Shown here: positions 13,853 through 45,597 of the stretch, piece after piece | Position numbering within the stretch: the stretch's first letter is position 1 | How the letters are laid out: each line of letters begins with the position of its first letter | From: a virus | Lineage: Duplodnaviria; Caudoviricetes | Length of the DNA: 64,000 bases | Direction: 5' to 3' (one strand) | Virus record (IMG/VR): IMGVR_UViG_3300021431_000010 | Span: 20,114 to 84,113 of that record | Notes under the pieces: generated by a model | Database searches by the model: none | Told to the model about the DNA's origin: nothing | The model's input: only the letters and a program-made list of their open reading frames with translations | Translations under genes and position numbers: made by a program

Positions 13853-13896
13853 GACTCTTTTGTTTTTCGGCTGCTCTTATGAAGGAGGAAATCAAA

Positions 13897-15257: not shown

Positions 15258-15292
15258 TTTTCTGACTCTATTATGAGAAGGAGAAAAGAATT

Positions 15293-15466
15293 ATGTTTAG
15301 AATTAAAAGACGTGAGGAGATCACTGATATATTTGAGGAAAAGAAACAAAAAGGTTTTACACAAATTAAACCTAGTACGGATATGGATATTGACGAACTT
15401 AGGAAATATGTGTTTAACGAAATAAATTCTTGTCACAAAGAAATCATGAAATCTATGTCTGATTAA
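15293..15466 (+). CDS. 57-aa hypothetical, not in ORF track
   Basis: Promoter motif, RBS and terminator. Confidence 0.55.
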   Translation: MFRIKRREEITDIFEEKKQKGFTQIKPSTDMDIDELRKYVFNEINSCHKEIMKSMSD

Positions 15467-15522
15467 GAGCCTAACAAGCTCTTTTCTTTTTCTGCCTCTT
15501 TTATGAAAAGGAGGTAAAGTTT

Positions 15523-15723
15523 ATGAACGAAAGAAAACTTTATCGTTATGAAGGAGCAGTTACTCAATTTGGGAAAGTTATAGACGATTTGTGGAAGGGA
15601 GGTACTCAAGCAGAATCTGAATCCAGAGCAAAGGCTAATCTTATGTTTCAATATAAGAGAAAGCATAAAATGGACAGATCTGCGAAGATAGAACTTCCTG
15701 GAAATGTTTATATTCTTGAATAA
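15523..15723 (+). CDS. Small hypothetical
   Basis: Cassette boundaries. Confidence 0.65.
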   Translation: MNERKLYRYEGAVTQFGKVIDDLWKGGTQAESESRAKANLMFQYKRKHKMDRSAKIELPGNVYILE

Positions 15724-15776
15724 GAGCCTAACAAGCTCTTTTGTTTTTCAGCTTCTATTACGAGGAGGATTTAACT

Positions 15777-15953
15777 ATGGCTAAGAACATTGAAAGATCT
15801 AGAGAAGTAAGACAATGGGTTAAACTTGGTGTTGAGATCGTATCCCTTGGTGCAATGCTTGACTGTACAGTCAACAATGGGCAAGGTATTAAAACAGCTC
15901 ACACCTGGTTTAAAGATAAGTGGTCTGCTTTGAAAAGAAAATTCAGTAAATAG
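15777..15953 (+). CDS. Small hypothetical
   Basis: Start corrected after GAGGAGG. Confidence 0.6.
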   Translation: MAKNIERSREVRQWVKLGVEIVSLGAMLDCTVNNGQGIKTAHTWFKDKWSALKRKFSK

Positions 15954-16024
15954 TTATCACCAGTAAAGAAGGATCTAACAGGTCCTCTTTATTTTTTCAA
16001 CGACTATTATGGAGGTAAATTACT

Positions 16025-16237
16025 ATGGCAGAAGAAAGAAGAACATTATCTGAAAGAGTTGGTGAATTTATTAAGGAGCATCCTTGGATGACTTTCTTTA
16101 CTGTAACGTCTCTAATTGAGGCGCCTGCAGCAATTATTAAGGCAATCAAGTGGGATGGAAAAGAAACACACGTCACTAACTACTACGGATCAAGTGAATC
16201 TACTGTGTCAAGTGGTTCAACAAATGAGTCTGAATAA
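16025..16237 (+). CDS. Small hypothetical
   Basis: Cassette boundaries; ends NESE. Confidence 0.65.
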   Translation: MAEERRTLSERVGEFIKEHPWMTFFTVTSLIEAPAAIIKAIKWDGKETHVTNYYGSSESTVSSGSTNESE

Positions 16238-16300
16238 GACTCTTTTGTTTTTCGCGGATATTTCGACCTCTATTATGAAAACAAATGGAGGTATGAACAA

Positions 16301-16696
16301 ATGAAGAAAGTTTTCACAATTTTGATGGTTTTATGCGTTTTATTAGGAATGAGCGGATGCTCATCTAGGAAAACATTTAAGACAGAAGATTATGAAGTTT
16401 ATGACATTATTTCAGATCTTGATGAGTTGAAGAAGAGCGCTGAAGAAGACGGCGTAGTAATGGATTATGACATTACTAGAGGATTTGATGGAAAGTACAC
16501 AATAAAGATCGTACTTGAATTTGGCGAACACAAATCTGAATGGAAATCATGTCCGTTCACGATGGATGAATTCAATAATGAATTTGACAATCTTGAACCG
16601 GATGATGTATTCACATTCAAAGTTGATGGAGTCAAATACGATTACGATACTGCAATGTTACTTCTTGAACATTACTCAGGTGGAATGATTGATTAA
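16301..16696 (+). CDS. Lipoprotein
   Basis: MKK + hydrophobic stretch + LLGMSGC lipobox-like sequence. Confidence 0.7.
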   Translation: MKKVFTILMVLCVLLGMSGCSSRKTFKTEDYEVYDIISDLDELKKSAEEDGVVMDYDITRGFDGKYTIKIVLEFGEHKSEWKSCPFTMDEFNNEFDNLEPDDVFTFKVDGVKYDYDTAMLLLEHYSGGMID

Positions 16697-16775
16697 TACG
16701 TTAGAGTCTTAACAGACTCTTTCTTTTTTCGCGTATTTTTCCCCTCCTATTATGAAAAGGAGAGGTTTATAAATT

Positions 16776-16967
16776 ATGGAAAATTTCATTTATATTTTAA
16801 AAACAGTATTTACTGGTATTTGTGTTGAGGTATGTTTAATTGGCTCATTAGAGCAATTAAGGCATGATCCAAGCAGTATTAGCAATATGCTCGTTGTTGG
16901 AATGGCAGTTATTTTCACACTAATATTTGTAAAACATTCTGGAATCAAATGGGGTAGCAGGTCTTAG
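16776..16967 (+). CDS. Small membrane protein
   Basis: Two hydrophobic segments. Confidence 0.6.
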   Translation: MENFIYILKTVFTGICVEVCLIGSLEQLRHDPSSISNMLVVGMAVIFTLIFVKHSGIKWGSRS

Positions 16968-17036
16968 CTACTCTTTTTGTTTTATATTTTCCTTTCGCGT
17001 ATTTTTCATACTCTATAGTGAGGAGAGTAGAGAAAA

Positions 17037-17234
17037 ATGAAGAAATTTATAGGTTTAGTTTTACTGTTTACGGTTAGTGTTATTAGCATGATCGGTTTAG
17101 GAAAGATCGTGGCTTATGATTGGCCGGAAATAGAAGAAGAGTCTATAAAAGCATTAGATTACTTAAACGAAAGGATGGATGACGCCATTGAAGTCATCGA
17201 AGAAAAGATGGTTATGGTCTTTGATAAAGACTAA
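17037..17234 (+). CDS. Small membrane-anchored protein
   Basis: N-terminal TM/signal. Confidence 0.6.
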   Translation: MKKFIGLVLLFTVSVISMIGLGKIVAYDWPEIEEESIKALDYLNERMDDAIEVIEEKMVMVFDKD

Positions 17235-17291
17235 CCAGTCTTTTTTTTCGCGAATTTTTCTACCTCTATTATGACAAGGAGGGTATGTTAA

Positions 17292-17438
17292 ATGATAATG
17301 TTTATTTTTAAATCTTTGATTGTAACAGCTTGCGCTATTGGAGGCTATTGGTTAGCAATGAAAATCAGCGTTGACTATGCAATTAAAGTTTTAACTGAGT
17401 ACGTTCACATGCTTAACGGTGATGAAGAGTCTGAATAA
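17292..17438 (+). CDS. 48-aa membrane peptide, not in ORF track
   Basis: Fills cassette, ends EESE. Confidence 0.55.
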   Translation: MIMFIFKSLIVTACAIGGYWLAMKISVDYAIKVLTEYVHMLNGDEESE

Positions 17439-17489
17439 GGCTCTTTTATTTTTCGCGAAAATTTCCAACTCTTTAATGGAGGTATTATT

Positions 17490-17687
17490 ATGGGTAAAAT
17501 TGATTTTGACAAAATGGCTAGAAAAGGTTTAATGAAGCAGTTTGCTTATCTGTTTATAGGTAGCTTTGGAGCAACATATTTGTTGAACAAAGCATTCCGA
17601 GCAGGTAGCGAATATACTGCTGGATCAATCGGGTCAGAGTTGGAAAGATTACAGTCTAAATCTTCCAATAATGAAGAGTCTGAATAA
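17490..17687 (+). CDS. Small membrane protein
   Basis: Central TM; ends EESE. Confidence 0.6.
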   Translation: MGKIDFDKMARKGLMKQFAYLFIGSFGATYLLNKAFRAGSEYTAGSIGSELERLQSKSSNNEESE

Positions 17688-17766
17688 GGCTCTTTTTTAT
17701 TTTTTCCTCTCGCGTAAATTTCATACTCTCTAATGAGAAAGAGAATAAATAATAGGGAGGAAAATC

Positions 17767-17847
17767 ATGATTAAAACAGTATTTACATTAATTATTTGTT
17801 TAATTTTATGGGTTGGTATGAACGGACTTGAAAGGAGTCATTCATAA
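17767..17847 (+). CDS. 26-aa membrane peptide, not in ORF track
   Basis: RBS GGGAGG; MIKTVFTLIICLILWVGM; terminator follows. Confidence 0.45.
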   Translation: MIKTVFTLIICLILWVGMNGLERSHS

Positions 17848-17888
17848 CGACTCTTTTTTTCTTCAAATTAAATTTAAGGAGGACAGAA

Positions 17889-18260
17889 ATGAAGAATTTA
17901 ATGAAGATTTTTGGATTGGGAATTTTGTTGCTGCTTGATGCAAAACTTATGGAAAAACTCGGAGCATACAGAGAAGAACCAACTATGGACGATTTCTTTA
18001 TCGATGACGAAGATGATGATATTCTCGATGATGAATACGCTCCTGGATACGGAGACGCTGTAACAGCCATCAGTAACAGTGATATGTTTTCTTCGCACAA
18101 GAAAGAAGCAATTGCTCATCTTCCGATCGGATGTATCTCATCTTTTTATAAGGGTGTTATCTCTGCTGCACATTGCGATATGTTCTCAGCTCATAAACGT
18201 GATCTGATTATCGAAATGTCTAAGAGAATTGAAGATTCGCGTAATTTTCAACGCCTATAA
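17889..18260 (+). CDS. Hypothetical with internal repeat (SDMFSSHK / CDMFSAHK)
   Basis: RBS AAGGAGG. Confidence 0.65.
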   Translation: MKNLMKIFGLGILLLLDAKLMEKLGAYREEPTMDDFFIDDEDDDILDDEYAPGYGDAVTAISNSDMFSSHKKEAIAHLPIGCISSFYKGVISAAHCDMFSAHKRDLIIEMSKRIEDSRNFQRL

Positions 18261-18458
18261 TGAGGAGGTGGTTTATATTAAATTGAGGTTTACAAAACAG
18301 CTAATTCAGGCACGAGCCTTTTATATAGATAAAAGAACAAAAGGAGGTGCCATTGGTTAGCCTGCGGAGCATACCTCTCTATTCTCAAACCGCAGCTAAG
18401 GAGAGAGTCTATCATAGGCTCTTCTCCTTTATTTTTTATTAGAAATCGAGGAGCAATA

Positions 18459-18878
18459 ATGAAAGAAGTAATAAGTGAAATGAAAAAAGAAATTCAAGAA
18501 CAATTAAAGTACGATATTGCAAAAGGTAAGATTTGGGGTTTAAGACTTGTTAAAACTCCTATCGAGGCAATCAAGACCAATTGCTATGGACTGATATTTG
18601 AAGAATCAAGAGAAATAGTTGGTTTTGATGAAGAAAAGTTCTATTTAAAAACTAGGTATAGAGAACCGACTTACATTCCTGGTACGTTTGATGGTAAGAA
18701 TTATGCTGTACCAGACTATTCACTTCCCACTGATATTTATAGTGATGCAGAAGCTTATTATTCTGCGTTTAATTACTATGACGGCGATATTCTTAGAGCA
18801 GTCTGTAAAATACCGGCAGCTGTAAATCCTAAGGATTCTATTAAGATAACCGAATACGAGGTTATAAGGAGTTATTGA
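18459..18878 (+). CDS. Hypothetical protein
   Basis: RBS GAGGAG. Confidence 0.65.
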   Translation: MKEVISEMKKEIQEQLKYDIAKGKIWGLRLVKTPIEAIKTNCYGLIFEESREIVGFDEEKFYLKTRYREPTYIPGTFDGKNYAVPDYSLPTDIYSDAEAYYSAFNYYDGDILRAVCKIPAAVNPKDSIKITEYEVIRSY

Positions 18879-19099
18879 TCATGGATGCTATTCATTTAAT
18901 TATATTTTTCTCTGTTGCAATTGGACTAATTGTAGGAATTATCGGAGCAAATATTCTGACATATAGGAATATTGACGCCATTCTTGGTATTAGCACTGCA
19001 GATCCGGAGAAAGATCAGTACAATTTTGTTATTTTATGTCCGTTGGATGAATTACATAAGAAACGGTATCTGATTGTTCAAGTCAAGGAAACAAAGTAA
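18875..19099 (+). CDS. Small membrane protein
   Basis: N-terminal TM. Confidence 0.6.
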   Translation: MIMDAIHLIIFFSVAIGLIVGIIGANILTYRNIDAILGISTADPEKDQYNFVILCPLDELHKKRYLIVQVKETK

Positions 19100-19299
19100 T
19101 TCGCGAAAATCCCAGATCCTATAATGAGAAAGGTATGGTAAATTTATGATTTATATTTTAGTAGCATTAATTGCCGGTATCGGTATCGGAACAATAATTG
19201 GAGCTTATTTTCACGAATACATTATTCACGAAGAAGAATATTATGTAGTCGAGGAGGATTAAACTCCTTTTATTTTTTTTCTTTGCAAAGGAGAGTAGA

Positions 19300-20247
19300 A
19301 TGCAATCTTATTATTTAGCGATTCGTCATGGTGATATTTCTGCGGTATACAACAAAGGAGAGTTTGTTAACGCATATGTAACTAAATGCGGTGAATCTAA
19401 AGAGTATAAAAACGAGGACGACTTTTTAGATTATTTGGACTATTTAGGAATCACTATCAATGATGTAAAGGAGGGTACAGGTATGAAAGAAAATTACATC
19501 TACACTAGCAGTAACTATGACGATTTTGTTTTCAGAACAGCCAACAGAGACGTTGATATTCAGCACATCAATAAGATTGCTGAGAATATGAAAGTCAATG
19601 GATGGCAGGGTGCTCCTATCGAAGTTTCTTTGACTGACGATAAGAAATTTCAGATCGAGGATGGTCAGCATCGTTTTATGGCTTGCAAAAAGTCAAATAC
19701 TCCGGTCAAATTTATGGTCGTTAAAAAGATGTCCATCTATGATGTGGCAACTAAGAACTCCATGAAGAAAGGCTGGAAGGGATCCGACTATATTAAGGCA
19801 TACTCTGAAGACGGCAATTTTAACTACAAGCGTTTGAAGAATTTACAGGACGAATTTCCGAAAGTAAGTTTGTCTGATATTCTTGACGTTGTAGTTGGAA
19901 AGCATACTCAGAATAACCTTAAGAAAGGTTACATCCATATTAACGATGAGCAGTATTACAAGGCCAGAGAGGTCTTAAAATCGCTCACAATCATGAACGA
20001 ATCTTTGAAGTTGATTGGCGTAAAAACCATGTCAAGCTATAAGAAGATTCTGGTTGATCTCTTATTGAATGATGTTATTGATCCTCAAAGAATGATTGAT
20101 AAGCTTGATAAACATGGTAGAATGCTTCTTCCACCATCGGCTACAAAAGATCAAGCCATTCAGTATCTTGAGGCGTTATATAACTATCACCAGAGAGATA
20201 AAACTACAGTCATGTTCAGAGAACAGTTAAAGGGTAGGCGTAAATAA
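19300..20247 (+). CDS. ParB/Srx-like domain protein
   Basis: NRDVD...PIEV...IEDGQHRFMA motif. Confidence 0.7.
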   Translation: MQSYYLAIRHGDISAVYNKGEFVNAYVTKCGESKEYKNEDDFLDYLDYLGITINDVKEGTGMKENYIYTSSNYDDFVFRTANRDVDIQHINKIAENMKVNGWQGAPIEVSLTDDKKFQIEDGQHRFMACKKSNTPVKFMVVKKMSIYDVATKNSMKKGWKGSDYIKAYSEDGNFNYKRLKNLQDEFPKVSLSDILDVVVGKHTQNNLKKGYIHINDEQYYKAREVLKSLTIMNESLKLIGVKTMSSYKKILVDLLLNDVIDPQRMIDKLDKHGRMLLPPSATKDQAIQYLEALYNYHQRDKTTVMFREQLKGRRK

Positions 20248-20331
20248 GCGTCTACTCTTTTTCTTTTCGGTAAACAGGTTACAGTTTTTAAAGATATTTT
20301 AATAAAGTAAAAAATATAAGGAGAGCAGAAA

Positions 20332-20511
20332 ATGACAGTCGGTGAACTGATTGCAAAGCTTGAAAAGCTTGATAAAAATCTTCCAGTTGTAGTGTACGCT
20401 GGAGAACTTGCATGCGATGAAATTATTGGAGAGTATGGGCTTAAAATAGCAAACTCTGTGCATCTTGATTGCAATGATTTAGGAACTAAATATGTTCTTA
20501 TAGAAGAATAA
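20332..20511 (+). CDS. 59-aa hypothetical (MTVGELIAKLEKL), not in ORF track
   Basis: RBS AAGGAG; MTVKEL family. Confidence 0.6.
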   Translation: MTVGELIAKLEKLDKNLPVVVYAGELACDEIIGEYGLKIANSVHLDCNDLGTKYVLIEE

Positions 20512-20748
20512 ATGAAAACCATAGCGATAATCGATATGCCTAAAGGCATACCTAAAAGATGTATTGATTGTAAGTATTTTGACTATTCACATTATTGCCA
20601 ATTAAATGGGCATGAAATGACTTTAAATGAGTTTGATGATATTTCAACGGTAAAAAGGCCAAAATGGTGCCCGTTAAAACCAATACCAAAAAGAGAAAAA
20701 GCAAATAAAGGAACCTCTGGTGAGTTTAAAACAATAGACGAGAAATAG
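20512..20748 (+). CDS. Cys-containing small protein
   Basis: IDMPK..CxxC..C..RPKWCPL phage motif. Confidence 0.6.
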   Translation: MKTIAIIDMPKGIPKRCIDCKYFDYSHYCQLNGHEMTLNEFDDISTVKRPKWCPLKPIPKREKANKGTSGEFKTIDEK

Positions 20749-20749
20749 A

Positions 20750-20968
20750 ATGAAAGCAACAGGAATAAAAAATAGACTATCGTTAAAACACTTAATCGAA
20801 ACATTAAGAATGGAACACGAAATTGAGATAAGAAATGAAGACAATTATAGATTATTTAATTGTCCAAGTAATTCACAAGCATTAGAGCCTTATTTGAATA
20901 GAGAAGTTATTGAATGGTTTGCATATGGAAGTTGCAAAATAGTTGTTTCAATAGGAGAAAAAGAATGA
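20750..20968 (+). CDS. Small hypothetical
   Basis: Bounded by junction repeats; ends GEKE. Confidence 0.6.
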   Translation: MKATGIKNRLSLKHLIETLRMEHEIEIRNEDNYRLFNCPSNSQALEPYLNREVIEWFAYGSCKIVVSIGEKE

Positions 20969-21147
20969 AAGAAGCATTAGAGGTAATAGGAGCAGTTGTA
21001 GTTACAATATTCATACTAGGTATACCAATATTGTCATTTGCGTCATTCGTATATGATTGGCCTGGTTTTATTAAATTGTATCTTATTGGATTTTCGGCGG
21101 TTGATTTTTTATTCGTATTAAATAAGTTAATTGGAGAAACGGAATGA
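20965..21147 (+). CDS. Small membrane protein
   Basis: Two TM segments; ends GETE. Confidence 0.6.
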   Translation: MKEALEVIGAVVVTIFILGIPILSFASFVYDWPGFIKLYLIGFSAVDFLFVLNKLIGETE

Positions 21148-21521
21148 CAAAAAACTTAAATGAATATACCATTGAAGAATTTCGTGAAATGGAATTGTTT
21201 GGTAGAGATTGTTTATTTAATAACGTTGTGATTGTACCTATGGACGAACTGCACTATAGCGGTTATAGATGTATGAAATTTATCTTGTGCCATCATGGAG
21301 ATATAGTTGGTGCTGTTGGCGGATGGTGTGATGTTGTGCATCCGAATGGCATGGGCAATCATGGTCCATCCTATGATTGGTCTGTAACTCCAAATATAGG
21401 CCTTTCGATTGATTGTTTAGTAGGAAGTGGATGTGTTCGTTTAATGATGAACGGATTTTATAAGTGCTCTGATTTTATCGGCTCTGATTTTATTTTTTAT
21501 AAGGTAGGAGAAACAGAATGA
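21144..21521 (+). CDS. Hypothetical protein
   Basis: Ends GETE at junction. Confidence 0.65.
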   Translation: MTKNLNEYTIEEFREMELFGRDCLFNNVVIVPMDELHYSGYRCMKFILCHHGDIVGAVGGWCDVVHPNGMGNHGPSYDWSVTPNIGLSIDCLVGSGCVRLMMNGFYKCSDFIGSDFIFYKVGETE

Positions 21522-21676
21522 ATAAAAAAATAATCACTTTAGATGTCCGTGATACTGAATTAGTTAATATTCTCAATATTTTATATCGGAACAATTATGA
21601 ATATGTGATAGTGCATAAACCAAGAGATGCAAGACCAATTTATAAAATTGAGGCACATGCAGGAGAAGCAGAATGA
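21518..21676 (+). CDS. 52-aa hypothetical, not in ORF track
   Basis: Runs junction to junction; ends GEAE. Confidence 0.55.
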   Translation: MNKKIITLDVRDTELVNILNILYRNNYEYVIVHKPRDARPIYKIEAHAGEAE

Positions 21677-21679
21677 ATA

Positions 21680-21826
21680 TCTTCGGTGGCGGAATAGGTA
21701 GACGCTAATCTGGGAATGGGTTATCCACTCAACGTTCAAAGCGCGTGGATAAATGAAAGCCTGTACAGTTCAATTCTGTACTAGATGTGCGCACATCATG
21801 TAAGGTGCAAATCCTTGCCCGAAGAG
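21680..21826 (+). ncRNA. tRNA-like RNA (Leu-type D arm) with about 67-nt expanded anticodon loop
   Basis: Acceptor TCTTCGG/CCGAAGA, D arm TGGCGGAATAGGTAGACGC, T arm GTAAGG-TGCAAAT-CCTTGC; no normal anticodon loop, no encoded CCA. Confidence 0.6.
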
Positions 21827-21867
21827 AATAAAGGAGAAACAGAATTAAGATTAAAGGAGAGAAAAAG

Positions 21868-22104
21868 ATGACACTAGAAGAGTATAACAAAATGTATACC
21901 AAAATCAGTGAATATGAAGCAATATCAAATAAGCTTTCGTCAATTTATGAGGCCATTGAGATTGTTAATGGCGAATATAGTACTGCCGACACTAATCGAG
22001 CATTAGGAAGTGTTATTATGAGAACACCAAAATTACAGGATGTTCTAAAAGATGCTTTAACTAAAATGAAATCTGATCTGGAAAAAGAACTTGAAGAGCT
22101 TTAA
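21868..22104 (+). CDS. Small hypothetical
   Basis: RBS AAAGGAG. Confidence 0.6.
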   Translation: MTLEEYNKMYTKISEYEAISNKLSSIYEAIEIVNGEYSTADTNRALGSVIMRTPKLQDVLKDALTKMKSDLEKELEEL

Positions 22105-22116
22105 AGAAGAAACAGA

Positions 22117-22236
22117 ATGAGTTATCAATTCAATTTGTTTTACGTAAATGGCAAGTACTATTTATATATTCTAATAGAGAAAGACAGTGAAGTTTATGTT
22201 GATATCAGAGAATATAGCTTAGGAGAAACAGAATGA
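22117..22236 (+). CDS. 39-aa hypothetical, not in ORF track
   Basis: Runs junction to junction; ends GETE. Confidence 0.45.
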   Translation: MSYQFNLFYVNGKYYLYILIEKDSEVYVDIREYSLGETE

Positions 22237-22493
22237 ACAAAGAATTAAAACCATGCCCATTCTGTGGGGCGGAGGTTGAACTTGAAAAGATACCACTTTG
22301 GCATGGAAGTCATGGCTATCATGGATGTTATGAATATAGAATTCGATGTAAAAAATGTGGTGCACAACCAAGTTATCCGAAGAATGATACAGTATATCGG
22401 TCTGAGGATGAAGCAATAAAAAATGTGGTTAAAGCATGGAACAGAAGATCACAGGAGAAACGGAATGAACATATTCAAAAGGATATTTTGTAA
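22233..22493 (+). CDS. Lar-family restriction alleviation-like zinc finger
   Basis: ELKPCPFCG...CKKCG...AWNRR. Confidence 0.75.
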   Translation: MNKELKPCPFCGAEVELEKIPLWHGSHGYHGCYEYRIRCKKCGAQPSYPKNDTVYRSEDEAIKNVVKAWNRRSQEKRNEHIQKDIL

Positions 22494-22656
22494 GCATAAA
22501 AATCTATATTGGGTGCGAAATATATATGGTGATGAAATAAACGATATTAGTTCGAGGCATATATATAGAAGCATATGGCGGTGCAAAGACTGCGGAAGAA
22601 CATTTTACAAAGAAATTTTGGTGAAACAGAATGAAAACAGTATGGAAACATTTTAA
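22465..22656 (+). CDS. Small zinc-ribbon protein
   Basis: IFCKH...WRCKDCG. Confidence 0.6.
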   Translation: MNIFKRIFCKHKNLYWVRNIYGDEINDISSRHIYRSIWRCKDCGRTFYKEILVKQNENSMETF

Positions 22657-23182
22657 AACAATATGCACGCATAAATTAGTAGTTTTTAAAGAATGTGCTG
22701 CTTGTGGAATACCTTGGCAAGGAATTACACATGATTTGTCAAAATTCAGTTTAACTGAGTTTATGCCTTCTGCAAGATATTATCAAGGAAACAAATCGCC
22801 GATTGAAGCTGAAAAAGCCTCCATAGGATATTCGGTAGCATGGTTACATCATAAAGGTCACAACAAACACCATTGGGAATGGTGGACGGATTTTTCAGAT
22901 GACGGAAAAATAATTGCCAATAAAATACCGCTTAAGTACGTAATTGAGATGGTATGCGACTGGATTGGAGCCGGAAAAACATATAGCAAGGAAAAATGGA
23001 CTGAAGATGAACCATTAAATTATTACATTAAAGTTCGTGGTGGAAGATATTTTCATCCTGAAACGGAAAAGCTTATTCTCGATCTTCTTAATGTAATAAA
23101 AGACTTCGGATTAGAACGTTTTCACAAAAAGTGTAGGATGTTACTGAAACATGAAAAACAGAATGATAGCAAACATTATTAA
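22631..23182 (+). CDS. HD-like His-rich protein (DUF5662-like)
   Basis: HDLSKFS..EF, AWLHHKGHNKHHWEWW, EMVCDW. Confidence 0.7.
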   Translation: MKTVWKHFKTICTHKLVVFKECAACGIPWQGITHDLSKFSLTEFMPSARYYQGNKSPIEAEKASIGYSVAWLHHKGHNKHHWEWWTDFSDDGKIIANKIPLKYVIEMVCDWIGAGKTYSKEKWTEDEPLNYYIKVRGGRYFHPETEKLILDLLNVIKDFGLERFHKKCRMLLKHEKQNDSKHY

Positions 23183-23450
23183 AGTAATCATGTGCCACTT
23201 TGTTGGTGATTACTTCATGCAGACAGAATACATGGCAAGGGAAAAGGGTAAAGATTGGTATGTCCTGTTTGCTCATTGCGTTTGTTATTGCGTTCCGTTT
23301 GCGATGGTGTATGGATGTGATTTAAACATATGGCTATTGCTTATATTGCATTTTGTGGCTGATGTAGCAAAGGCAAGATACCACAAAATGTCGATATGGG
23401 AAGACCAAATATTTCATTTGTTGGTTGCTTTTCTGCTTTATGTACTTTAA
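23163..23450 (+). CDS. DUF3307-like membrane protein
   Basis: HFVGDYFMQ, LHFVAD, DQIFH. Confidence 0.7.
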   Translation: MIANIIKVIMCHFVGDYFMQTEYMAREKGKDWYVLFAHCVCYCVPFAMVYGCDLNIWLLLILHFVADVAKARYHKMSIWEDQIFHLLVAFLLYVL

Positions 23451-23461
23451 GGAGAAACAGA

Positions 23462-24112
23462 ATGATTAAAGTTGAAAATATAGACGTTTGGGGTTTTGAA
23501 CATGCTATCAGAGGTATGAGAAATCCTCTTAATAGCTGGGCAAAGAGCGATTCGCTTATGTTCGGAACTGCAACTATATATGCGGACGATAAAATTATAG
23601 CTGAAATGATTGGCCCAAATGATCTGGAGCTTATGAGAAAACTTTATGCTGCTGGTCCGGAGCATAGAAAGTATCTTAGGCAGATATTTGTCTCAATGGA
23701 TATTACTGCACCACTTTATTGGTGGAAAGAGTTCGACACATACAAGGTCGGGACGGTTTCAAACAGCTGCAGTACAATGCATAAGATTCATGCTAAAGAG
23801 TTTACCTTAGATGATTTCAGTGTAGAACACTTAACTGAAGGAAATCTTGAAGGCTTTAAAAGCAATCTGAACTGTTTGAATACAGCAAGACAGAATTTCA
23901 TAGAAACAAAAGATAAAATTTGGTGGTGGCAAATGATCCAAATACTTCCATCATCATATAACCAGAGAAGAACGATCACGATGAATTACGAAAATGTAAT
24001 GACAATAATTAAACAGAGGACTGGTCACAAGTTAGACGAATGGAACGAGCTCGTTGATATTCTCTACGACCTTCCATATGTAAGAGAAATAAGGAGCATT
24101 GCAAATGACTAG
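23462..24112 (+). CDS. Conserved phage protein, possibly ThyX-fold
   Basis: HRKYLRQI..DITAPLYWWKEFDTY..SCSTMH..LPSSYNQ..HKLDEW; lacks canonical RHRxxS. Confidence 0.45.
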   Translation: MIKVENIDVWGFEHAIRGMRNPLNSWAKSDSLMFGTATIYADDKIIAEMIGPNDLELMRKLYAAGPEHRKYLRQIFVSMDITAPLYWWKEFDTYKVGTVSNSCSTMHKIHAKEFTLDDFSVEHLTEGNLEGFKSNLNCLNTARQNFIETKDKIWWWQMIQILPSSYNQRRTITMNYENVMTIIKQRTGHKLDEWNELVDILYDLPYVREIRSIAND

Positions 24113-24428
24113 AAAAGATCCTTATGATATTATCCATATTCGCGGAATGGAATATTCGATAAAGAAAATTCAAAAACTTCATGATAAAGATACGGCTAAG
24201 CCTCCAAAAATGATGGAAGGTTTGGATCTTGTATGGTTTTGTCCTTCATGCAACGAGTTTCATAGCATTGATCCGCTTACAGGAATAAAGGATAAATACT
24301 GTTCTCATTGCGGACAAAGAATTAAATGGCCAAGAGCAAAGAAAAAAGAAGTAACTAAGCCAGTCGTAAAGAAAGGAGATTCCAAGAATGTTCAACAAAC
24401 AGAAAGACGAGATAAAAACGACAATTAA
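24105..24428 (+). CDS. Zinc-ribbon protein
   Basis: CPSC...YCSHCGQRIKW. Confidence 0.65.
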   Translation: MTRKDPYDIIHIRGMEYSIKKIQKLHDKDTAKPPKMMEGLDLVWFCPSCNEFHSIDPLTGIKDKYCSHCGQRIKWPRAKKKEVTKPVVKKGDSKNVQQTERRDKNDN

Positions 24429-24570
24429 GGAAGAAGTTTCAGAAATAGTTAATAGCGGTAAAGTTTTATCTATCGGAATTATGGTTCTTTGTAGTCTTAC
24501 TGTTGGTTATATTTTAGGATCGGTTACTACTGGAGCAATGGATCGAGTTTTACTTGCTGCTAATCGCTGA
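24388..24570 (+). CDS. Small membrane protein
   Basis: RBS and TM segment. Confidence 0.55.
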   Translation: MFNKQKDEIKTTIKEEVSEIVNSGKVLSIGIMVLCSLTVGYILGSVTTGAMDRVLLAANR

Positions 24571-24603
24571 TATTTCAGTTCCTATAATGAAAGGAGATTA
24601 TAC

Positions 24604-25005
24604 ATGAACGAAAAAACGAGAAAAAATCTGGAAGATACAATGAATGATTGTTTAGACAGAGCGTATGCTTGTGAAGCTGATTCGGAGGATTATGTAAAAT
24701 ACATTTCAAAAGCAACATCGATTGCGAACGTTCTTAACGAAGAACAGAAAATTCAAAGTGAAAAAGAAGTTGAGCTCAAAAAAGTTGAGCAGGGCGGAGA
24801 AATCACTAAGAAGGATGTGTTCTTAGCTGGAGCGCCAATCTTAACGTTGTTATTGGATTTAGGTTTACGAAATACGATATTTACGAGTCAGATGAAAAGA
24901 ATTACGGACTTTGAACTACACAATACGTATACAACTTCTGGAGGACGTTGGATCACAAGTTCGTTACGTGATATTTTCAACTTCAATGGTAGAAGAGGAC
25001 GATAA
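24604..25005 (+). CDS. Hypothetical protein
   Basis: Promoter motif, RBS and terminator. Confidence 0.65.
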   Translation: MNEKTRKNLEDTMNDCLDRAYACEADSEDYVKYISKATSIANVLNEEQKIQSEKEVELKKVEQGGEITKKDVFLAGAPILTLLLDLGLRNTIFTSQMKRITDFELHNTYTTSGGRWITSSLRDIFNFNGRRGR

Positions 25006-25072
25006 AAAAGTCCTCTTTTATTTTCGCTGAAATCGCATCCTCTTTAATGACAAAGGAGGTATTTAATAATTT

Positions 25073-25234
25073 ATGATCACATTATTTGGAATTATAGCTT
25101 TTCTTTCATTAATTATGTTTGCAGTAGCAATATGTATAATATTTGGAGGTGTTACTGGATTAATGATAGTGGGAGATTTAGTTGTATTTTTCTTTATATG
25201 TGGTTTCTTATTGAAACTTTTATTTGGAAGATAG
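25073..25234 (+). CDS. 53-aa hydrophobic membrane peptide, not in ORF track
   Basis: Promoter motif and AAGGAGG; two TM segments. Confidence 0.55.
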   Translation: MITLFGIIAFLSLIMFAVAICIIFGGVTGLMIVGDLVVFFFICGFLLKLLFGR

Positions 25235-25294
25235 AGAGCATCGATGAGGATGCTCTTTGTTTTTTCATGACCTATTATGAAAGGAGATTTATAT

Positions 25295-25519
25295 ATGGAA
25301 ATTAAAAATGAGGAAAAGAATGAATTAACATTAACTGAGAAGCACGATCAAGAAGTTGATATGCAATTGAAAGAGGCTAAAAGAATTGGTAAAGATGTTC
25401 TTATTGGCAGTTTCACAGCAGCTTCAGTTTCATGGTTAGGCTATCAGTTTCTACGTTATTTTAAATCATTCGTAAACGTTTTAAGCCAGTATAAGAATCA
25501 AAAGAAAGAGTCTGAATAA
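25295..25519 (+). CDS. Small membrane protein
   Basis: TM segment; ends KESE. Confidence 0.6.
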   Translation: MEIKNEEKNELTLTEKHDQEVDMQLKEAKRIGKDVLIGSFTAASVSWLGYQFLRYFKSFVNVLSQYKNQKKESE

Positions 25520-25548
25520 GACTCTTTTTGCTTTGCAAAGGAGAAAAA

Positions 25549-26400
25549 ATGAATACAGGTATTGTTTGGGATTTAGCAGGAAGATTAGTAAATATTACTA
25601 GAAAACATACTCCAGAAATTCTGGCAGGTCTCGGAATTGGAGGTTTTATCACAACAAGCGTTTTAGCTGCAAAGGCTGCTCCGAAAGCTGCAGAGAAGAT
25701 CGAAGAAGCAAAAGAAGAGCTTCAGGTTGAGGAACTTACTCCAGTTCAGACAGTTAAAACTGTATGGAAAGATTATATTCCGGCAGTAGCAACTGGTATA
25801 ACATCTACTTTATGTATTGTTGGTTCTGTCAATACAAGTCTTAAGAGAAATGCAGCACTCGCAACTGCATATGAAATGTCTAGAACAATGATGGATGAGT
25901 ATCGAGCAAAGACAATTGATATTGTCGGAGAGAAGAAAGAGCAAAAGATCAGAACTGCGATTGCACAGGATCACGTCGAAAAAAATCCACCTATGGATGA
26001 TGATATTAATGTCATTAATCCTGAAGATAGTAAAACACTTAAAATCTTAGTTCAAGATGAATTAAGTGGATTCTATAAGCTTGTTAACAATTTAGACGAA
26101 GTCAGATATGCAATAGGAAGAGGCTATGATAAGCAAGAAAAATCATTCGATGAAAGTATGAGTGAATACGAGTGGTATTGCATTCTAGAACCTCGTATTA
26201 CTGATATTTTAACTGAAACACAGATTCATAGAGCTCAAAATTCTTATTGGAGTTCAGCAACTCCATATGAAGGATTTAGCTGTGAAATTGATGAAAACAG
26301 TCTGAAGACAATAACCACTGGCAAATGGAAAGGGTATCCATGTTATTCAATAACTTATGGAAGTTATCCAAAGTACCAGGATTATTGGAGAACCTACTGA
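25549..26400 (+). CDS. Membrane-anchored phage protein (DUF6353-like), paralogue A
   Basis: KHTPEILAGLG...KRNAALATAY. Confidence 0.65.
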   Translation: MNTGIVWDLAGRLVNITRKHTPEILAGLGIGGFITTSVLAAKAAPKAAEKIEEAKEELQVEELTPVQTVKTVWKDYIPAVATGITSTLCIVGSVNTSLKRNAALATAYEMSRTMMDEYRAKTIDIVGEKKEQKIRTAIAQDHVEKNPPMDDDINVINPEDSKTLKILVQDELSGFYKLVNNLDEVRYAIGRGYDKQEKSFDESMSEYEWYCILEPRITDILTETQIHRAQNSYWSSATPYEGFSCEIDENSLKTITTGKWKGYPCYSITYGSYPKYQDYWRTY

Positions 26401-26512
26401 CTCCAAGAATTGGATCGGTGGTTTGAAAAACACTACTGGTGGTGAATGATATTTAGCTCGCGTATTTTTCATCACCTATTATGACATACATATAAATATA
26501 AGGAGGTATACT

Positions 26513-40619: not shown

Positions 40620-40703
40620 TAAGCAAGCCCTGGATATTTCTGGGGCTTTTCTTTTTTTTATCTGTACGCGTAAAATTCCGGGCCTCTTATGGAGGTAAAA
40701 ATC

Positions 40704-41560: not shown

Positions 41561-41730
41561 ATCAATCCACTGGTAATGGATATTTTCACACCGAATTTTT
41601 AGTTCGCGGAAATTCCATGCCCTGTTATGAAGGAGAAATGATAAAACGCCGACTTTTTATAAGTTTGTGTCGGTTTGCGTCGTTTCCCTTTTCTTTTTGT
41701 TTTTGTCAGGTTTAAAGGAGAGTGAACTAT

Positions 41731-42051: not shown

Positions 42052-42604
42052 GGGAACTCATGCTTTTTTGAGTGCTTCAAGTTATCACTGGCTGAACTAT
42101 ACAGATGACAAATTGATATCTGTATTTAAGGCAAAGCTAGCGGCACAAAAAGGCACTGAGCTTCATGATTTTGCATCTAGATGTATTAAACTTCGTCAAA
42201 GGCTTCCGAAGTCTAATAAGGCTTTAAATGCTTTTGTGAACGATGCTATCGGATACGGTATGGATTCTGAGATTCCTTTATATTATTCGGCGAACTGCTA
42301 TGGAACTGCAGACGCTATTTACTTTGGCAAGCAGCGCGGTTCAGAAAGAATGATATTACGAATCCATGATTTGAAGACTGGTGACATACCAGCCAAGATC
42401 GACCAGTTATTGGTCTATGCGTCTTTGTTCTGTTTGGAGTATGGATTTAAGCCTGGTGAGATTGACATGGAATTGAGGATTTATCAAGGGAATGAAGTTC
42501 TCTTCTATAATCCGAAGCCTGAAGAAATCTTACCGATTATGGATTTAATCATTCGCTTCAGTAAGATCCTTGACGACATCAAAGCTAGGGAAGGAGTGAA
42601 TTGA
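42023..42604 (+). CDS. PD-(D/E)XK exonuclease (Cas4/RecB-like)
   Basis: HAFLSAS, GTELH, GTADAI, IHDLKTG, QLLVYA. Confidence 0.75.
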   Translation: MKWNPHSAIEGTHAFLSASSYHWLNYTDDKLISVFKAKLAAQKGTELHDFASRCIKLRQRLPKSNKALNAFVNDAIGYGMDSEIPLYYSANCYGTADAIYFGKQRGSERMILRIHDLKTGDIPAKIDQLLVYASLFCLEYGFKPGEIDMELRIYQGNEVLFYNPKPEEILPIMDLIIRFSKILDDIKAREGVN

Positions 42605-45597
42605 TATTTATGACTTATGAGAAACCGTCGTTAGACGATTTTTTAATGCATTACGGTATTGACCATATTAAAGGAACTCCTGGATCTGGCAGATATCCTT
42701 GGGGTTCTGGAGATACACCATTCCAGCATTCTGGAGATTTTCTTTCGTTCGTAACTCAGCTGAGGAAAGAAAAGCCAACATACACAGATAATGAAGAATA
42801 CATTATAAAGAATGGTGAAAAGATTAAGAATCCTGATTATGGTAAAACATTCAAAGGCGAAACCGCTGTAGCAAAGATATTAAAGATGAGCACTACAGAA
42901 TATAGGCACGCTATTACTCTTGCATCTAATCTTGATAAGATGGACAAGATTAATCGTGCTGAAGCTTTATGGAATACATACGATGAAAATGGAAAACATA
43001 AGTATGGATATTCTGAGATTGCTCGTAAAATGGGTTTGCCTAATGAATCATCTGTTAGATCACTTTTAGAGCCTTCTAGAAGAGCAAACATTGAGATATC
43101 CTTGAAGACTGCAGACTTCTTAAAAGATCGTCTTAATGAACTTTCTAAGTCCGATCCAAAAGCTATGATTGATATTGGTCCTGGTGTTGAGACTGAACTC
43201 AATATCACTAGAACTAAGCTCGATGATGCTGTTTATATTTTGGAAGGAGAAGGTTATAAGACATTTGGTGGAAGAGTTCCTAATATTACTGATCCATCTG
43301 GTGCAAGACAAACAACAATGAATGTTATTGCTACACCAGATGCGAATTGGAAAGATTTTTACGAGTATAGTCATATCAAAGGTATTAAAGATTATGAAGC
43401 TATTAACAATGGAATTGATGGATTTAAAAAGAAATTTGAATTCCCTGAGTCCATGGATTCTAGCAGATTGATGATTAGATATGCTGAAGATGGTGGTAAA
43501 GAAAAAGATGGTCTTGTTGAACTTAGAAGAAACGTAGATGATCTTTCTCTTGGTGAAAAGAATTATGCTCAGGTACGAATCCTTGTTGATGGAACTAAAT
43601 ATATTAAAGGCATGGCAGCTTATGCTATTGATCAAGATTCATTTCCACCTGGTGTTGATGTGATATTTAACACTAATAAGCATAAGGATGTTGCTAAACT
43701 TGATGTTTTAAAAGATGTTAAGAGAGACAAAATTACTGGTGAAATTGATAGAGATAATCCATTCGGTTCTTTGATTAAAGATAAAGAACAGGGTGGTCAA
43801 AGCTATTATACCGGTAAAGATGGTAAACAACATCTTAGTCTTATCAATAAAAGAGCTGATGAAGGTGACTGGGATAACTGGAAAGACACACTTTCGGCAC
43901 AGTTCTTATCGAAGCAAACAGTTCAGTTAGCAAAGAGACAGTTGAATTTAGCTGTTCTTGAAAAACAAGAAGAGTTAAAAGATATTATGAGTCTTGAAAA
44001 TAATACACTTAAAAAGTATTACTTAGATTCATTTGCTAGTGACTGCGATTCTTCAGCTGTTCATTTGACAGCAGCAGCTTTACCAAGACAGAAGTTCCAG
44101 GTTATTTTACCTATTCCGTCAATGAAAGATAATGAAATCTATGCACCTAACTATAAAGATGGTGAACAGGTAGCATTAGTTCGTTATCCACATGGTGGCC
44201 AATTCGAAATTCCAATTCTGACTGTTAATAATAAACAGAAAGATGGCGTTGCAATGATTGGCAAGAACTCAAGAGATGCTGTCGGTATTAATGCTTCTGT
44301 TGCAGAAAAGCTTTCTGGAGCTGACTTTGATGGCGATACTGTTATGGTTATCCCAACAAACAGCACTATTAGAATCAAGAATAATAACGGAAAGTCTTTG
44401 AAAGGCTTAGAAGGTTTCGAACCAAAAGAGGTTTATGGCTGCGATCCTAGTAAGACTTATGAAGATAAGAATGGTAATAAGCATTACTTTAATAAAGCAG
44501 GTTTGGAATTCAAGGTAATGAAGAACACTCAGAATGAAATGGGTCGTATTTCAAACCTTATTACAGACATGACTATTAAAGGCGCTACAGAAGATGAATT
44601 AGCAAAAGCAGTTCGTCATTCAATGGTTGTTATTGATGCAGAAAAGCATAAACTTGATTACCAGTCAAGCTACGCTCAGAATGAGATTGAACGTCTTAAA
44701 AAGAAGTATCAAGCTCATTTGGATGAAGATGGAAAAGAAGCATATGGCGCGTCAACTCTTATTTCAATGGCTAAGTCTCAGAAAGATGTAGTTAGAAGAA
44801 GAGGCCAGCCTCGAGTTAATATTAAAGGTCGTCCTGATTATGATCCATCTAAGCCAGAAGGTGCATTATTATATAAAGAAGATCCTAAAGCTAGGTACAC
44901 TATAGAGAAGGTTAATAAAAAGACTGGGGAAGTAAAGGTAATAGAAAAAACTCGTAAGCAGCCAAGCACAAAAATGGCTGAAACAGATGATGCTAGAACA
45001 TTGATCTCAGATAGAAATTCTCCAATGGAACAACTTTATGCCTCCTATGCCAATACAATGAAAAGTATGGCTAACCAGGCTAGAAAGCTTAGTTATGAAA
45101 CAAAAGGATCTGAATATAGTAGTAATGCAGCAAAGAAATACGCTAACGAGGTACGAGAACTAGAGAATCAGTTAGATCTGTCTACTAAGAATAAACCTAG
45201 AGAAAGACAGGCTCAAGTTATTGCTACTGTATCATTTAAAGCAAAGGTTCAAAGTAATCCAGACATTAAGAAGGAAGACAAGAAGAAACTTAGACAGATA
45301 GAGCTTACCAAGGCACGGTCTAGGGTAGGGGCCCAGAGGAATGAAATTACCATTACCGATGAAATATGGGAGGCTATCCAGGCTGGAGCAGTGCATGCGA
45401 ACACTTTAAGAAAAGTTTTAGACCATACGGACACGGATAAGTTAAGGGAGAGAGCTACTCCGAGTTCAAGAAAAACAATGACTGACGCCATGAAGAGTAG
45501 AGCAAAAGCTATGGCACAAAGTGGAAAAACAAATGCAGAAATTGCGGCAGCTCTTGGAGTTTCTTCTAGTACAATTGCTAAAGCTATTAAAGAATGA
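42601..45597 (+). CDS. Single-chain two-barrel RNA polymerase (YonO/QDE-1-like)
   Basis: RYPH, LSGADFDGD (44317-44337), GRISNLITD, HSMVVIDAEK; HTH motifs near both termini. Confidence 0.8.
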   Translation: MIFMTYEKPSLDDFLMHYGIDHIKGTPGSGRYPWGSGDTPFQHSGDFLSFVTQLRKEKPTYTDNEEYIIKNGEKIKNPDYGKTFKGETAVAKILKMSTTEYRHAITLASNLDKMDKINRAEALWNTYDENGKHKYGYSEIARKMGLPNESSVRSLLEPSRRANIEISLKTADFLKDRLNELSKSDPKAMIDIGPGVETELNITRTKLDDAVYILEGEGYKTFGGRVPNITDPSGARQTTMNVIATPDANWKDFYEYSHIKGIKDYEAINNGIDGFKKKFEFPESMDSSRLMIRYAEDGGKEKDGLVELRRNVDDLSLGEKNYAQVRILVDGTKYIKGMAAYAIDQDSFPPGVDVIFNTNKHKDVAKLDVLKDVKRDKITGEIDRDNPFGSLIKDKEQGGQSYYTGKDGKQHLSLINKRADEGDWDNWKDTLSAQFLSKQTVQLAKRQLNLAVLEKQEELKDIMSLENNTLKKYYLDSFASDCDSSAVHLTAAALPRQKFQVILPIPSMKDNEIYAPNYKDGEQVALVRYPHGGQFEIPILTVNNKQKDGVAMIGKNSRDAVGINASVAEKLSGADFDGDTVMVIPTNSTIRIKNNNGKSLKGLEGFEPKEVYGCDPSKTYEDKNGNKHYFNKAGLEFKVMKNTQNEMGRISNLITDMTIKGATEDELAKAVRHSMVVIDAEKHKLDYQSSYAQNEIERLKKKYQAHLDEDGKEAYGASTLISMAKSQKDVVRRRGQPRVNIKGRPDYDPSKPEGALLYKEDPKARYTIEKVNKKTGEVKVIEKTRKQPSTKMAETDDARTLISDRNSPMEQLYASYANTMKSMANQARKLSYETKGSEYSSNAAKKYANEVRELENQLDLSTKNKPRERQAQVIATVSFKAKVQSNPDIKKEDKKKLRQIELTKARSRVGAQRNEITITDEIWEAIQAGAVHANTLRKVLDHTDTDKLRERATPSSRKTMTDAMKSRAKAMAQSGKTNAEIAAALGVSSSTIAKAIKE

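Follow-up and report, generated by a model that had tools for sequence, protein, structure and literature searches.

A 64,000-bp stretch of a Caudoviricetes genome (the window, bases 20114-84113 of the 84,113-bp IMG/VR virus record IMGVR_UViG_3300021431_000010) contains an open reading frame (ORF) of 998 codons at positions 42601 to 45597 whose product is predicted to be a single-chain RNA polymerase, together with 37 copies of a 26-nt promoter-like motif. We consider it probable that this ORF encodes a single-chain two-barrel DNA-dependent RNA polymerase of the family found in phages 1706 and FP_oengus and in actinophages, and that the 26-nt motif is its own promoter. A preliminary description of the window had proposed this pairing, and the proposal gains from the co-occurrence of motif and enzyme, the fixed spacing of the motif and its non-host features; the start site and the activity of the enzyme are inferred.

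Catalytic core, fold and HTH modules of the polymerase

Either TTG 42601 or ATG 42610 is a possible start of the ORF, because an identical database protein of 995 aa (P0002) begins at the latter. The product matches PHROG 4291 ('RNA-dependent RNA polymerase') with an E-value of 0 and 1086 bits, residues 11-997 aligning with profile positions 8-906 of 909. The gene and its predicted parts, including the helix-turn-helix (HTH) modules, are as follows.

42601..45597, + strand: gene for the predicted single-chain two-barrel RNA polymerase, PHROG 4291 (998 codons from TTG 42601; 995 from ATG 42610)
42634..42741, + strand: conserved N-terminal leader, residues 12-47, HYG...SGRYPWGSG...QHSGDF (invariant H17, G19, S29-R31, G35-G37, Q42)
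42838..42984, + strand: N-terminal HTH-like module 1, residues 80-128 (hhalign; helices 87-93 and 98-124)
42985..43158, + strand: N-terminal HTH-like module 2, residues 129-186 (hhalign; helices 137-144, 149-155 and 158-184)
44083..44370, + strand: barrel with RYPH and GADFDGD, the catalytic Mg loop (alignment and model; Pfam RdRP match at residues 565-704)
44542..44652, + strand: two conserved helices with GRISN and HSMVVIDAEKHK (helices 643-659 and 664-683 in the model)
45469..45594, + strand: C-terminal HTH of the sigma region 4 / LuxR type, residues 957-998 (Pfam)

All four motifs first picked out in this ORF (RYPH, GADFDGD, GRISN and HSxxxDxxK) are present and are built on residues that are invariant in a 38-sequence family alignment. 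RYPH occupies residues 528-531 (44182-44193; R528, Y529, P530 and H531 invariant), GADFDGD residues 573-579 (44317-44337; G573, A574, D575, D577, G578 and D579 invariant), GRISN residues 648-652 (44542-44556; G648, S651 and N652 invariant) and HSMVVIDAEKHK residues 673-684 (44617-44652; H673, S674, D679, K682 and H683 invariant). RxP lies approximately 45 residues before DxDGD, and R528, P530, D575, D577 and D579 are invariant in all 38 sequences. Residues 220-417 form a beta-rich block, a possible second barrel as judged from alignment and model, with invariant R326, D330, K336, D353 and K360. The Pfam RdRP domain (PF05183) matches 15 of the 38 relatives at E <= 0.001.

An AlphaFold2 model built on the alignment (predicted local distance difference test score, pLDDT, 79; predicted template-modelling score, pTM, 0.63) was compared with the Protein Data Bank (PDB) using Foldseek. 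The top match was QDE-1 (E 5e-8), followed by Thermus phage P23-45 gp64 (8f72, the best-matching phage structure; E 9e-6) and gp62 (E 3e-5) and by plant RDR2 (E 7e-5), with a weak match to a crAss-like virion polymerase (E 0.04) and short matches to the cellular beta-prime barrel (probability 0.99). Template-modelling scores (TM-scores) are low (0.2-0.36), so the similarity is confined to the catalytic core, and a PDB sequence search with the polymerase protein returned chance coiled-coil matches only. The model supports a fold of the single-chain two-barrel (double-psi beta-barrel) type for the ORF product, and the two-barrel active site claimed for it is borne out by the matches to QDE-1, gp64 and RDR2 and by the invariance of RxP and DxDGD.

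HTH motifs had been noticed at both ends of the protein, and both were recovered. At the C-terminus, Pfam HTH_28 matches residues 972-997 (E 1.9e-5, 25.1 bits against a cut-off of 25), and Sigma70_r4_2, which at 22.7 bits is below its 25.7 cut-off here, matches 33 of the 38 family members. No Pfam domain was found in the N-terminal HTH region at E <= 1; using hhalign, module 1 aligns with module 2 at a probability of 92.6% and with the C-terminal HTH at 81%, and module 2 aligns with the C-terminal HTH at 95%. By these profile comparisons the N-terminal modules are predicted homologues of the C-terminal HTH, residues 80-128 being an apparent duplicate of residues 129-186. The conserved leader that precedes them is modelled at low confidence (pLDDT < 50 for residues 1-38) and occurs once in the genome. 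The idea that it serves as a 'cargo leader' was unsupported: a comparison of residues 8-62 with shorter proteins gave 10 matches, and the three inspected (P0124, P0126 and P0131) are pieces or fusions of the polymerase gene or the upstream exonuclease, none of them an independent carrier of the leader. In ten IMG/VR relatives (G009, G013, G014, G016, G018, G038, G039, G045, G046 and G054) the polymerase match is interrupted near residues 750-790 and resumes within one frame of 990-1050 aa, which suggests an inserted segment at this point.

The protein could in principle be something other than a phage transcriptase, such as an RNA-dependent polymerase, a primer-maker or an otherwise specialised enzyme, a reading favoured by its closest solved folds, the RNA-silencing enzymes QDE-1 and RDR2, and by the name 'RNA-dependent RNA polymerase' on its records. 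However, QDE-1 itself uses DNA templates (PMC9508822), the studied phage proteins of this fold, YonO (PMC5467207) and P23-45 gp64 (PMC10770324), are DNA-dependent transcriptases, and HTH modules together with a travelling motif fit DNA-directed initiation. We give such an alternative hardly any credence, and a DNA template appears the probable one for the enzyme described here.

Counts and architecture of the promoter-like motif

The motif was originally described as a 38-copy pattern of fixed spacing. In IUPAC code this pattern has 20 exact matches, all on the + strand, where none are expected (100 shuffles). A position weight matrix (PWM) built from the 20 matches and run across the whole 84-kb genome gave 38 sites at a score of at least 5, all on the + strand. 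At a score of at least 8 the count is 35 on the + and 1 on the - strand. Site 33646 (score 6.8) was dropped as it lies inside the DNA polymerase (primase-polymerase) ORF and has neither the final G nor a Shine-Dalgarno sequence. Fixed spacing and strand therefore stand, with the count corrected to 37, all on the + strand. Thirty-five copies fall at 6947-26458, the region in which the motif had been said to precede most genes, but the PWM scan found none within 19.2-24.5 kb, nor any in structural genes. The two copies reported outside the array are both present, at 40666 and 41604 rather than at 40665 and 41603. Each copy is given below with its window coordinates, strand, form of the upstream box and PWM score.

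6947..6972, +, TCTTT form, 37.4
8833..8858, +, TCTTT form, 33.8
9273..9298, +, TCTTT form, 33.4
9509..9534, +, TCTTT form, 32.9
9692..9717, +, TCTTT form, 27.6
10114..10139, +, TCTTT form, 36.7
10476..10501, +, TCGCA form, behind a 27-nt conserved insert, 12.1
10794..10819, +, TCTTT form, 34.5
11059..11084, +, TCTTT form, 36.1
11276..11301, +, TCTTT form, 36.5
11732..11757, +, TCTTT form, 33.8
12143..12168, +, TCGCA form, behind the conserved insert, 7.7
12515..12540, +, TCTTT form, 32.7
12861..12886, +, TCTTT form, ends TACG, 32.2
13038..13063, +, TCTTT form, 35.3
13338..13363, +, TCGCA form, behind the conserved insert, 7.2
13615..13640, +, TCGCG form, 26.9
13856..13881, +, TCTTT form, 22.3
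14118..14143, +, TCGCG form, 34.9
15250..15275, +, TCGTA form, 25.8
15480..15505, +, TCTTT form, 28.2
15737..15762, +, TCTTT form, 25.3
15986..16011, +, TCTTT form, 24.0
16252..16277, +, TCGCG form, 26.2
16729..16754, +, TCGCG form, 38.3
16995..17020, +, TCGCG form, 26.7
17248..17273, +, TCGCG form, 34.5
17453..17478, +, TCGCG form, 26.5
17710..17735, +, TCGCG form, 29.4
18237..18262, +, TCGCG form, 32.4
19101..19126, +, TCGCG form, heads an operon with a ParB-like gene, 11.5
24564..24589, +, TCGCT form, 23.4
25024..25049, +, TCGCT form, 8.8
25254..25279, +, TCTTT form, 18.8
26458..26483, +, TCGCG form, heads the replication block, 33.6
40666..40691, +, ACGCG form, after terminator 40625-40648, heads a 68-aa HTH ORF, 17.0
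41604..41629, +, heads the endonuclease-exonuclease-polymerase operon, after terminator 41518-41537, 11.5

The 26-nt motif consists of an upstream box (TCGCG or TCTTT), an A/T-rich stretch leading to an invariant C13, five free bases, and a core C19-T-n-T-W-A-T-G26-A27. C2, C13, T20, T22 and G26 are found in 37 of 37 copies, C19 and A24 in 36, T25 in 35 and A27 in 33, while the five bases between C13 and C19 are unconstrained. The T-rich form at positions 3-5 (TCTTT) accounts for 18 copies, mostly at 6.9-13 kb, and the G-form (TCGCG and near variants) for 19, mostly at 13.6-26.5 kb plus 40666 and 41604. In approximately half of the copies, the TCTTTTATTTTT form of the upstream half doubles as the U-tract of the preceding terminator. 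A Shine-Dalgarno-like purine run, defined loosely as AGGAGG down to a 4-nt AAGG or GAGG, begins 0-3 nt after G26 in 34 of the 37 copies. As would be expected of a promoter, the motif is over-represented, confined to one strand and placed directly 5' of genes in the gaps.

The three TCGCA-form copies share a conserved insert, CTGTTTGAAC/GA/CAAGTGAAAACTG/ATATT, at 10436-10475, 12103-12142 and 13298-13337, between the terminator U-tract and the motif. The copy at 12861, which ends in TACG, is followed by about 150 nt (12887-13037) with two GGTTTGAATCC strings resembling tRNA T-arms; ARAGORN found no tRNA in the window, and an Rfam search of 6-27 kb at E <= 1 returned two matches, both attributable to chance.

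Most copies belong to a single array.

6859..26483, + strand: one-gene cassette array, each unit being terminator hairpin, motif, Shine-Dalgarno sequence and small ORF

Terminator-like sites number 48 (38 on the + strand) in 6-26 kb against 8.0 +/- 2.9 in shuffles, compared with 20 against 9.8 expected in 26-46 kb and 12 against 11.0 expected in 44-64 kb. Ten ORFs of the array and its downstream edge were scanned, of which six have no PHROG match, three belong to families of unknown function and one is ParB-like. Contigs from RNA libraries X15 and X12 are 201-630 nt long and mostly within one cassette, whereas DNA runs give multi-kb contigs; the RNA-library contigs cannot reveal transcript starts or ends, X12 is probably DNA, and they were not counted as evidence.

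Part of this architecture recalls a promoter for the host holoenzyme (with sigma-A or an alternative sigma, perhaps helped by a small phage HTH protein), which would leave the two-barrel enzyme otherwise employed. The core holds a -10-like TATTAT or TATAAT, the boxes are approximately 17 bp apart as in sigma-70 promoters, two small sigma region 4-like HTH ORFs are encoded at 40434-40619 and 40689-40895, and a temperate phage needs some host-read promoters. However, the -10-like box has no -35 partner and no TG extension, and a start 7 nt past it would leave the strongly conserved Shine-Dalgarno sequence out of the transcript. Far from being enriched, hexamer pairs of the sigma-70 type are depleted in three overlapping 20-kb scans of 6-64 kb (61 vs 81.4, 39 vs 68.5 and 37 vs 62.4 in dinucleotide shuffles), by about 2 to 4 standard deviations, and the scan picks up only one motif copy, 17453 (site 17462-17491). 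Moreover, the same motif is found in phages whose hosts (Faecalibacterium, Lactococcus and Streptomyces) have different housekeeping promoters. A host sigma-A promoter is unlikely, as had been argued from the position of the Shine-Dalgarno sequence, and we consider the wider host-holoenzyme reading, in any of its forms, improbable too. A phage-encoded sigma factor was also contemplated and dropped, since a domain scan found Sigma70_r2 absent from the whole genome.

Motif and polymerase in related phages and known systems

Co-occurrence across relatives, which the preliminary description had put forward as a check on the pairing of motif and phage enzyme, was found in both directions. Using the polymerase protein we found 23 IMG/VR loci, 20 of which have at least 1.1 kb of upstream sequence and are evaluable. 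Under a strict pattern 15 of these 20 have the motif core at a distance of 921-1069 bp upstream of the polymerase, and under a relaxed one 18 do. FP_oengus, 1706 and Scap1 carry it as well. FP_oengus (49% GC) has CGCG-N15-HTWAYG 13 times on the + and once on the - strand, with identical spacing and the consensus ACGCGAAAAAWWCAG-N4-CTTTATGG, one copy being 907 bp upstream of its polymerase gene. In 1706 the core matches 12 times on the + and twice on the - strand (1.1 expected) and reads TTTAC-N5-CTATAGTAG, and the Streptomyces phage Scap1 (61% GC) has TCGCAAGTTTTAC-AGCCT-CTATAGTGAGA, in which the N5 spacing is kept, plus a second near copy. The 37 copies found here compare with 1 to 13 in the relatives scanned. 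In FP_oengus, ARAGORN reports a tRNA-like gene with an abnormal anticodon loop (2935-3006 of locus L027) that begins at the first base after a motif copy, a position that hints at a start at the motif end.

In the reverse test the 26-nt pattern was the sole query; more than 116 stretches of IMG/VR matched it, and the first 50 distinct records among those listed were examined. The polymerase is encoded in 41 of these 50, and in 21 of the 22 that are at least 90% complete, against a base rate of 250 in 50,697 GenBank phage records. G008, the sole near-complete exception, encodes the family DNA polymerase; its contig stops 592 bp from a motif directed towards that end, about where the polymerase gene is expected. 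Among the 50 motif-chosen records we found no complete genome with the motif and without the polymerase gene. A 26-nt signal that is kept at 40-57% protein identity and across host phyla argues for a reader travelling with the phage.

This constancy bears on two further explanations of the repeat. One is that it is an operator-type site for a phage regulator, not a promoter. The one-orientation 'stoperators' of cluster A mycobacteriophages provide the model, and the many copies in one orientation, in short gaps before genes, together with an integrase and small HTH proteins, are in keeping with it. However, the motif has remained constant while the polymerase diverged to 40-57% identity, and repressor specificities are not known to stay constant over such divergence. 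Nearly every copy also follows a terminator (48 sites vs 8 expected), so transcription of the downstream genes has to be initiated anew, and 1706, which the title of its source paper calls virulent, also has the motif. We judge an operator very unlikely.

The other is that the repeat is a mobile terminator-promoter cassette or an RNA-level signal for processing or translation, spread by recombination and having no particular link to the polymerase. In DNA from other runs (X3 and X4), contigs jump between repeats, 9521>10492 inside two motif copies and 12864>13306 from motif to terminator U-tract, while a joint at 15257>16994 connects position 8 of one motif copy to the base preceding another, out of register. 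Recombination at repeats seems to add and remove early cassettes, as judged from metagenome contigs in which assembly artefacts are possible, and the composite promoter-terminator repeats (PeSLs) of T4-type phages may shuffle genes (PMC2839356, PMC4122927). Recombination nevertheless leaves unexplained the invariant positions on either side of five free bases, the conservation across phyla where flanking DNA is unalignable, and the copy with a fixed place roughly 1 kb 5' of the polymerase gene. The chance that the repeat is mainly a mobile cassette or an RNA-level signal appears slight; mobile cassette and promoter are compatible, as a promoter can double as a recombination site.

Several observations weigh against a phage polymerase with the motif as its own promoter. 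Two of the 20 evaluable loci (L019 and L024) have no motif upstream of the polymerase under the relaxed pattern, MT835495 has the core in only 2 copies, and G004 and G005 have 1 forward match each and more on the reverse strand. Five of the nine polymerase-less records in the reverse test were examined and all five encode the group's primase-polymerase. The motif-bearing records all come from a single phage group, so shared descent could account for part of the co-occurrence, which does not amount to independent proof. A query of five polymerase-less records with the endonuclease gave no match, an uninformative result. The TCTTT half may be conserved for termination, because it doubles as a terminator U-tract. 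An X15 contig at 24564-24983 spans a whole motif copy, unlike a transcript starting at G26, though read-through or library DNA could explain it equally well. At residues 565-704 the Pfam RdRP match reaches 21.2 bits, below its 23.8 cut-off. Our literature search found no start site, enzyme activity or rifampicin test for any family member. Finally, some host-read promoter must exist, because a prophage (the phage has an integrase) cannot rely on a virion-delivered enzyme, and none was identified for prophage induction.

The novelty implied for the enzyme was overstated, since the family is already in print. The 1706 protein is listed among five distantly related YonO-like families by Ruprich-Robert and Thuriaux (PMC2919709), and a preprint reports the same protein in FP_oengus, 1706-like phages and a supercluster of actinophages, calling it a 'signature genetic element' of the group and describing an HHpred match to PF05183, a DxDGD loop and HTHs at both ends (10.1101/842583). 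The polymerase gene is a new member of this already described 'HTH putative RNA polymerase' family, with full-length homology (36-47% identity) to 1706 orf75, FP_oengus AUV56548 and the actinophage 'HTH DNA-binding' protein and the same gene neighbourhood, a Cas4-like exonuclease followed by packaging genes. It differs from the 1706 and FP_oengus relatives in that about half of the motif copies are fused to the preceding terminator. The family is large, with at least 8000 clusters of proteins (90% identity) scored for it. The word 'promoter' occurs 0 times in the accessible text of 10.1101/842583, and we found no published promoter for the PHROG 4291 family in the literature covered, which did not extend to Figure S1 of that paper or to Supplementary Data 4 of PMC10770324.

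The nearest characterised system is that of Thermus phage P23-45, whose gp64 (non-virion) and gp96 (virion) are likewise single-chain phage two-barrel enzymes; the enzyme described here is known from sequence and model. Activity and start sites have been shown for the P23-45 polymerases, and early genes are preceded by a separate promoter motif for each, which is confined to relatives carrying the enzyme (PMC10770324). There is no detectable sequence similarity between gp64 and the present protein, the promoter sequences differ, and fused HTHs are not mentioned for gp64 in the accessible text. YonO of SPbeta is a proven DNA-dependent single-chain two-barrel transcriptase of phage genes, with DxDGD, which transcribes a late operon from one start site upstream of yonK; its promoter and need for helper factors are stated to be unknown (PMC5467207). 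Of the two comparisons initially suggested, that with QDE-1 held up in Foldseek and that with YonO did not, hhalign of the family profile against YonO (839 residues) giving a probability of 0.4% over 24 columns. YonO is a functional analogue and not a family mate, because the profile comparison shows no similarity. The core motif shows no enrichment in SPbeta either, with 9 matches against 7.7 expected over 40 kb. QDE-1 of Neurospora and plant RDR2 are the best structural matches overall (E 5e-8 to 3e-4), at approximately 10% identity and TM-scores of 0.2-0.3, but theirs is a role in eukaryotic RNA silencing and the matched parts have no HTH modules.

T7-type promoters are compact and reach the start site, and the purine-rich first transcribed stretch doubles as ribosome-binding sequence. 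The compact promoter-like layout here is alike, whereas the T7 RNA polymerase fold is unrelated and without HTH modules. The array also has a PeSL-like layout, in that repeated terminator-motif units flank small variable ORFs. PeSL promoters are read by the host sigma-70 holoenzyme, whereas the promoter half here is without sigma-70 features and tracks a phage polymerase. In T4-type phages, PeSLs combine a repeated stem-loop terminator and an early promoter flanking small variable genes, with possible cassette shuffling (PMC2839356, PMC4122927).

Proposed mechanism and genome setting

If the motif is the promoter of the polymerase, transcription would start at or beside G26/A27, as suggested by the invariance of G26, the purine at position 27 and the abutting Shine-Dalgarno sequence, and each mRNA would then open with its Shine-Dalgarno sequence. 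Approximately 35 small early genes would each be made as their own short transcript, ended by a hairpin terminator. The fused HTHs (two N-terminal and one C-terminal of the sigma region 4 type) would read the upstream box, thereby taking the place of a sigma factor. Motif 41604 would drive the nuclease-nuclease-polymerase operon, making expression self-reinforcing, and its transcript may continue into packaging and structural genes, because terminator-like sites downstream are no more frequent than expected by chance. The label 'early', set against the late genes of YonO, suits the array copies and is otherwise too narrow, as one copy heads the polymerase operon and no above-chance terminators precede the structural genes. 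Between motif 41604 and the first operon gene is a 92-nt leader (41630-41721) with a Shine-Dalgarno sequence, a 25-codon hydrophobic mini-ORF, and a hairpin CGCCGAC...GTCGG followed by a long T-rich run; this hairpin leader could be an attenuator of polymerase expression.

A GenBank note on ReqiPoco6 gp106 ('structural protein, similar to 1706_gp75 structural protein'), the sole basis for a virion location, hints that the polymerase is in the virion; a review mentioning 1706 is silent on this. In its strongest form, the proposal would have a virion-packed, sigma-free polymerase that reads a bipartite 26-nt promoter via its own HTHs, starts at the ribosome-binding site and transcribes nearly the whole genome without host polymerase, a version that we regard as conceivable though doubtful.

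The PHROG 4291 family bears on the question of how minimal two-barrel RNA polymerases locate promoters when no sigma factor is present. It offers a sharp promoter-like consensus (37 copies in one genome, recognisable in phages from three groups of hosts), candidate reader domains within the polymerase polypeptide itself, unlike the situation for YonO, and several culturable hosts. If the proposed pairing is true, it would provide a compact, possibly portable polymerase-promoter pair for Gram-positive bacteria, and a host-independent transcription kit would help to explain how one phage lineage spans Actinobacteria and Firmicutes.

The 84,113-bp record has 127-bp direct terminal repeats, and the + strand carries nearly all genes of the window. 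The phage is probably temperate, given a predicted integrase. The main features apart from the polymerase and motif copies are as follows.

1-6.7 kb: structural block, tail and lysis end
7449..8522, - strand: integrase, the sole large - strand gene (phrog_1, E 1.9e-40)
8.8-26.5 kb: small-ORF array
30060-34232: primase-polymerase, 1390 aa, in the replication block
36278-37657: helicase, in the replication block
41722-42051, + strand: endonuclease, 5' of the exonuclease and polymerase genes (phrog_93, E 4.4e-14)
42023-42604, + strand: Cas4-like exonuclease, directly 5' of the polymerase gene (phrog_3953, E 1e-71)

An HNH endonuclease, the large terminase and head genes come 3' of the polymerase ORF. 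Gene order matches that of FP_oengus (Faecalibacterium), 1706 (Lactococcus), Scap1 (Streptomyces) and ReqiPoco6 (Rhodococcus), and the endonuclease-exonuclease-polymerase order is also present in FP_oengus, Scap1 and ReqiPoco6. As elsewhere in the family, the polymerase gene stands between the Cas4-like exonuclease and the genome end or packaging genes. A megablast search with the surrounding 8 kb found no match among GenBank phages, and the early region is present in DNA runs labelled bovine or animal gut.

The two small ORFs with sigma region 4-like HTHs at 40434-40619 (61 aa) and 40689-40895 (68 aa) flank motif 40666 and are candidate regulators of the late or polymerase operon. Two weak terminator-like sites and a palindrome rich in G and C (GGGAGGGGGT...ACCCCACCCCCT) lie in a 319-nt gap at 45928-46246, 3' of the small ORF that follows the polymerase. 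This gene pair is followed almost at once by the physical end of the genome in 1706, Scap1 and ReqiPoco6, with an annotated cos overhang in ReqiPoco6, and the gap may be a candidate site of the packaging end.

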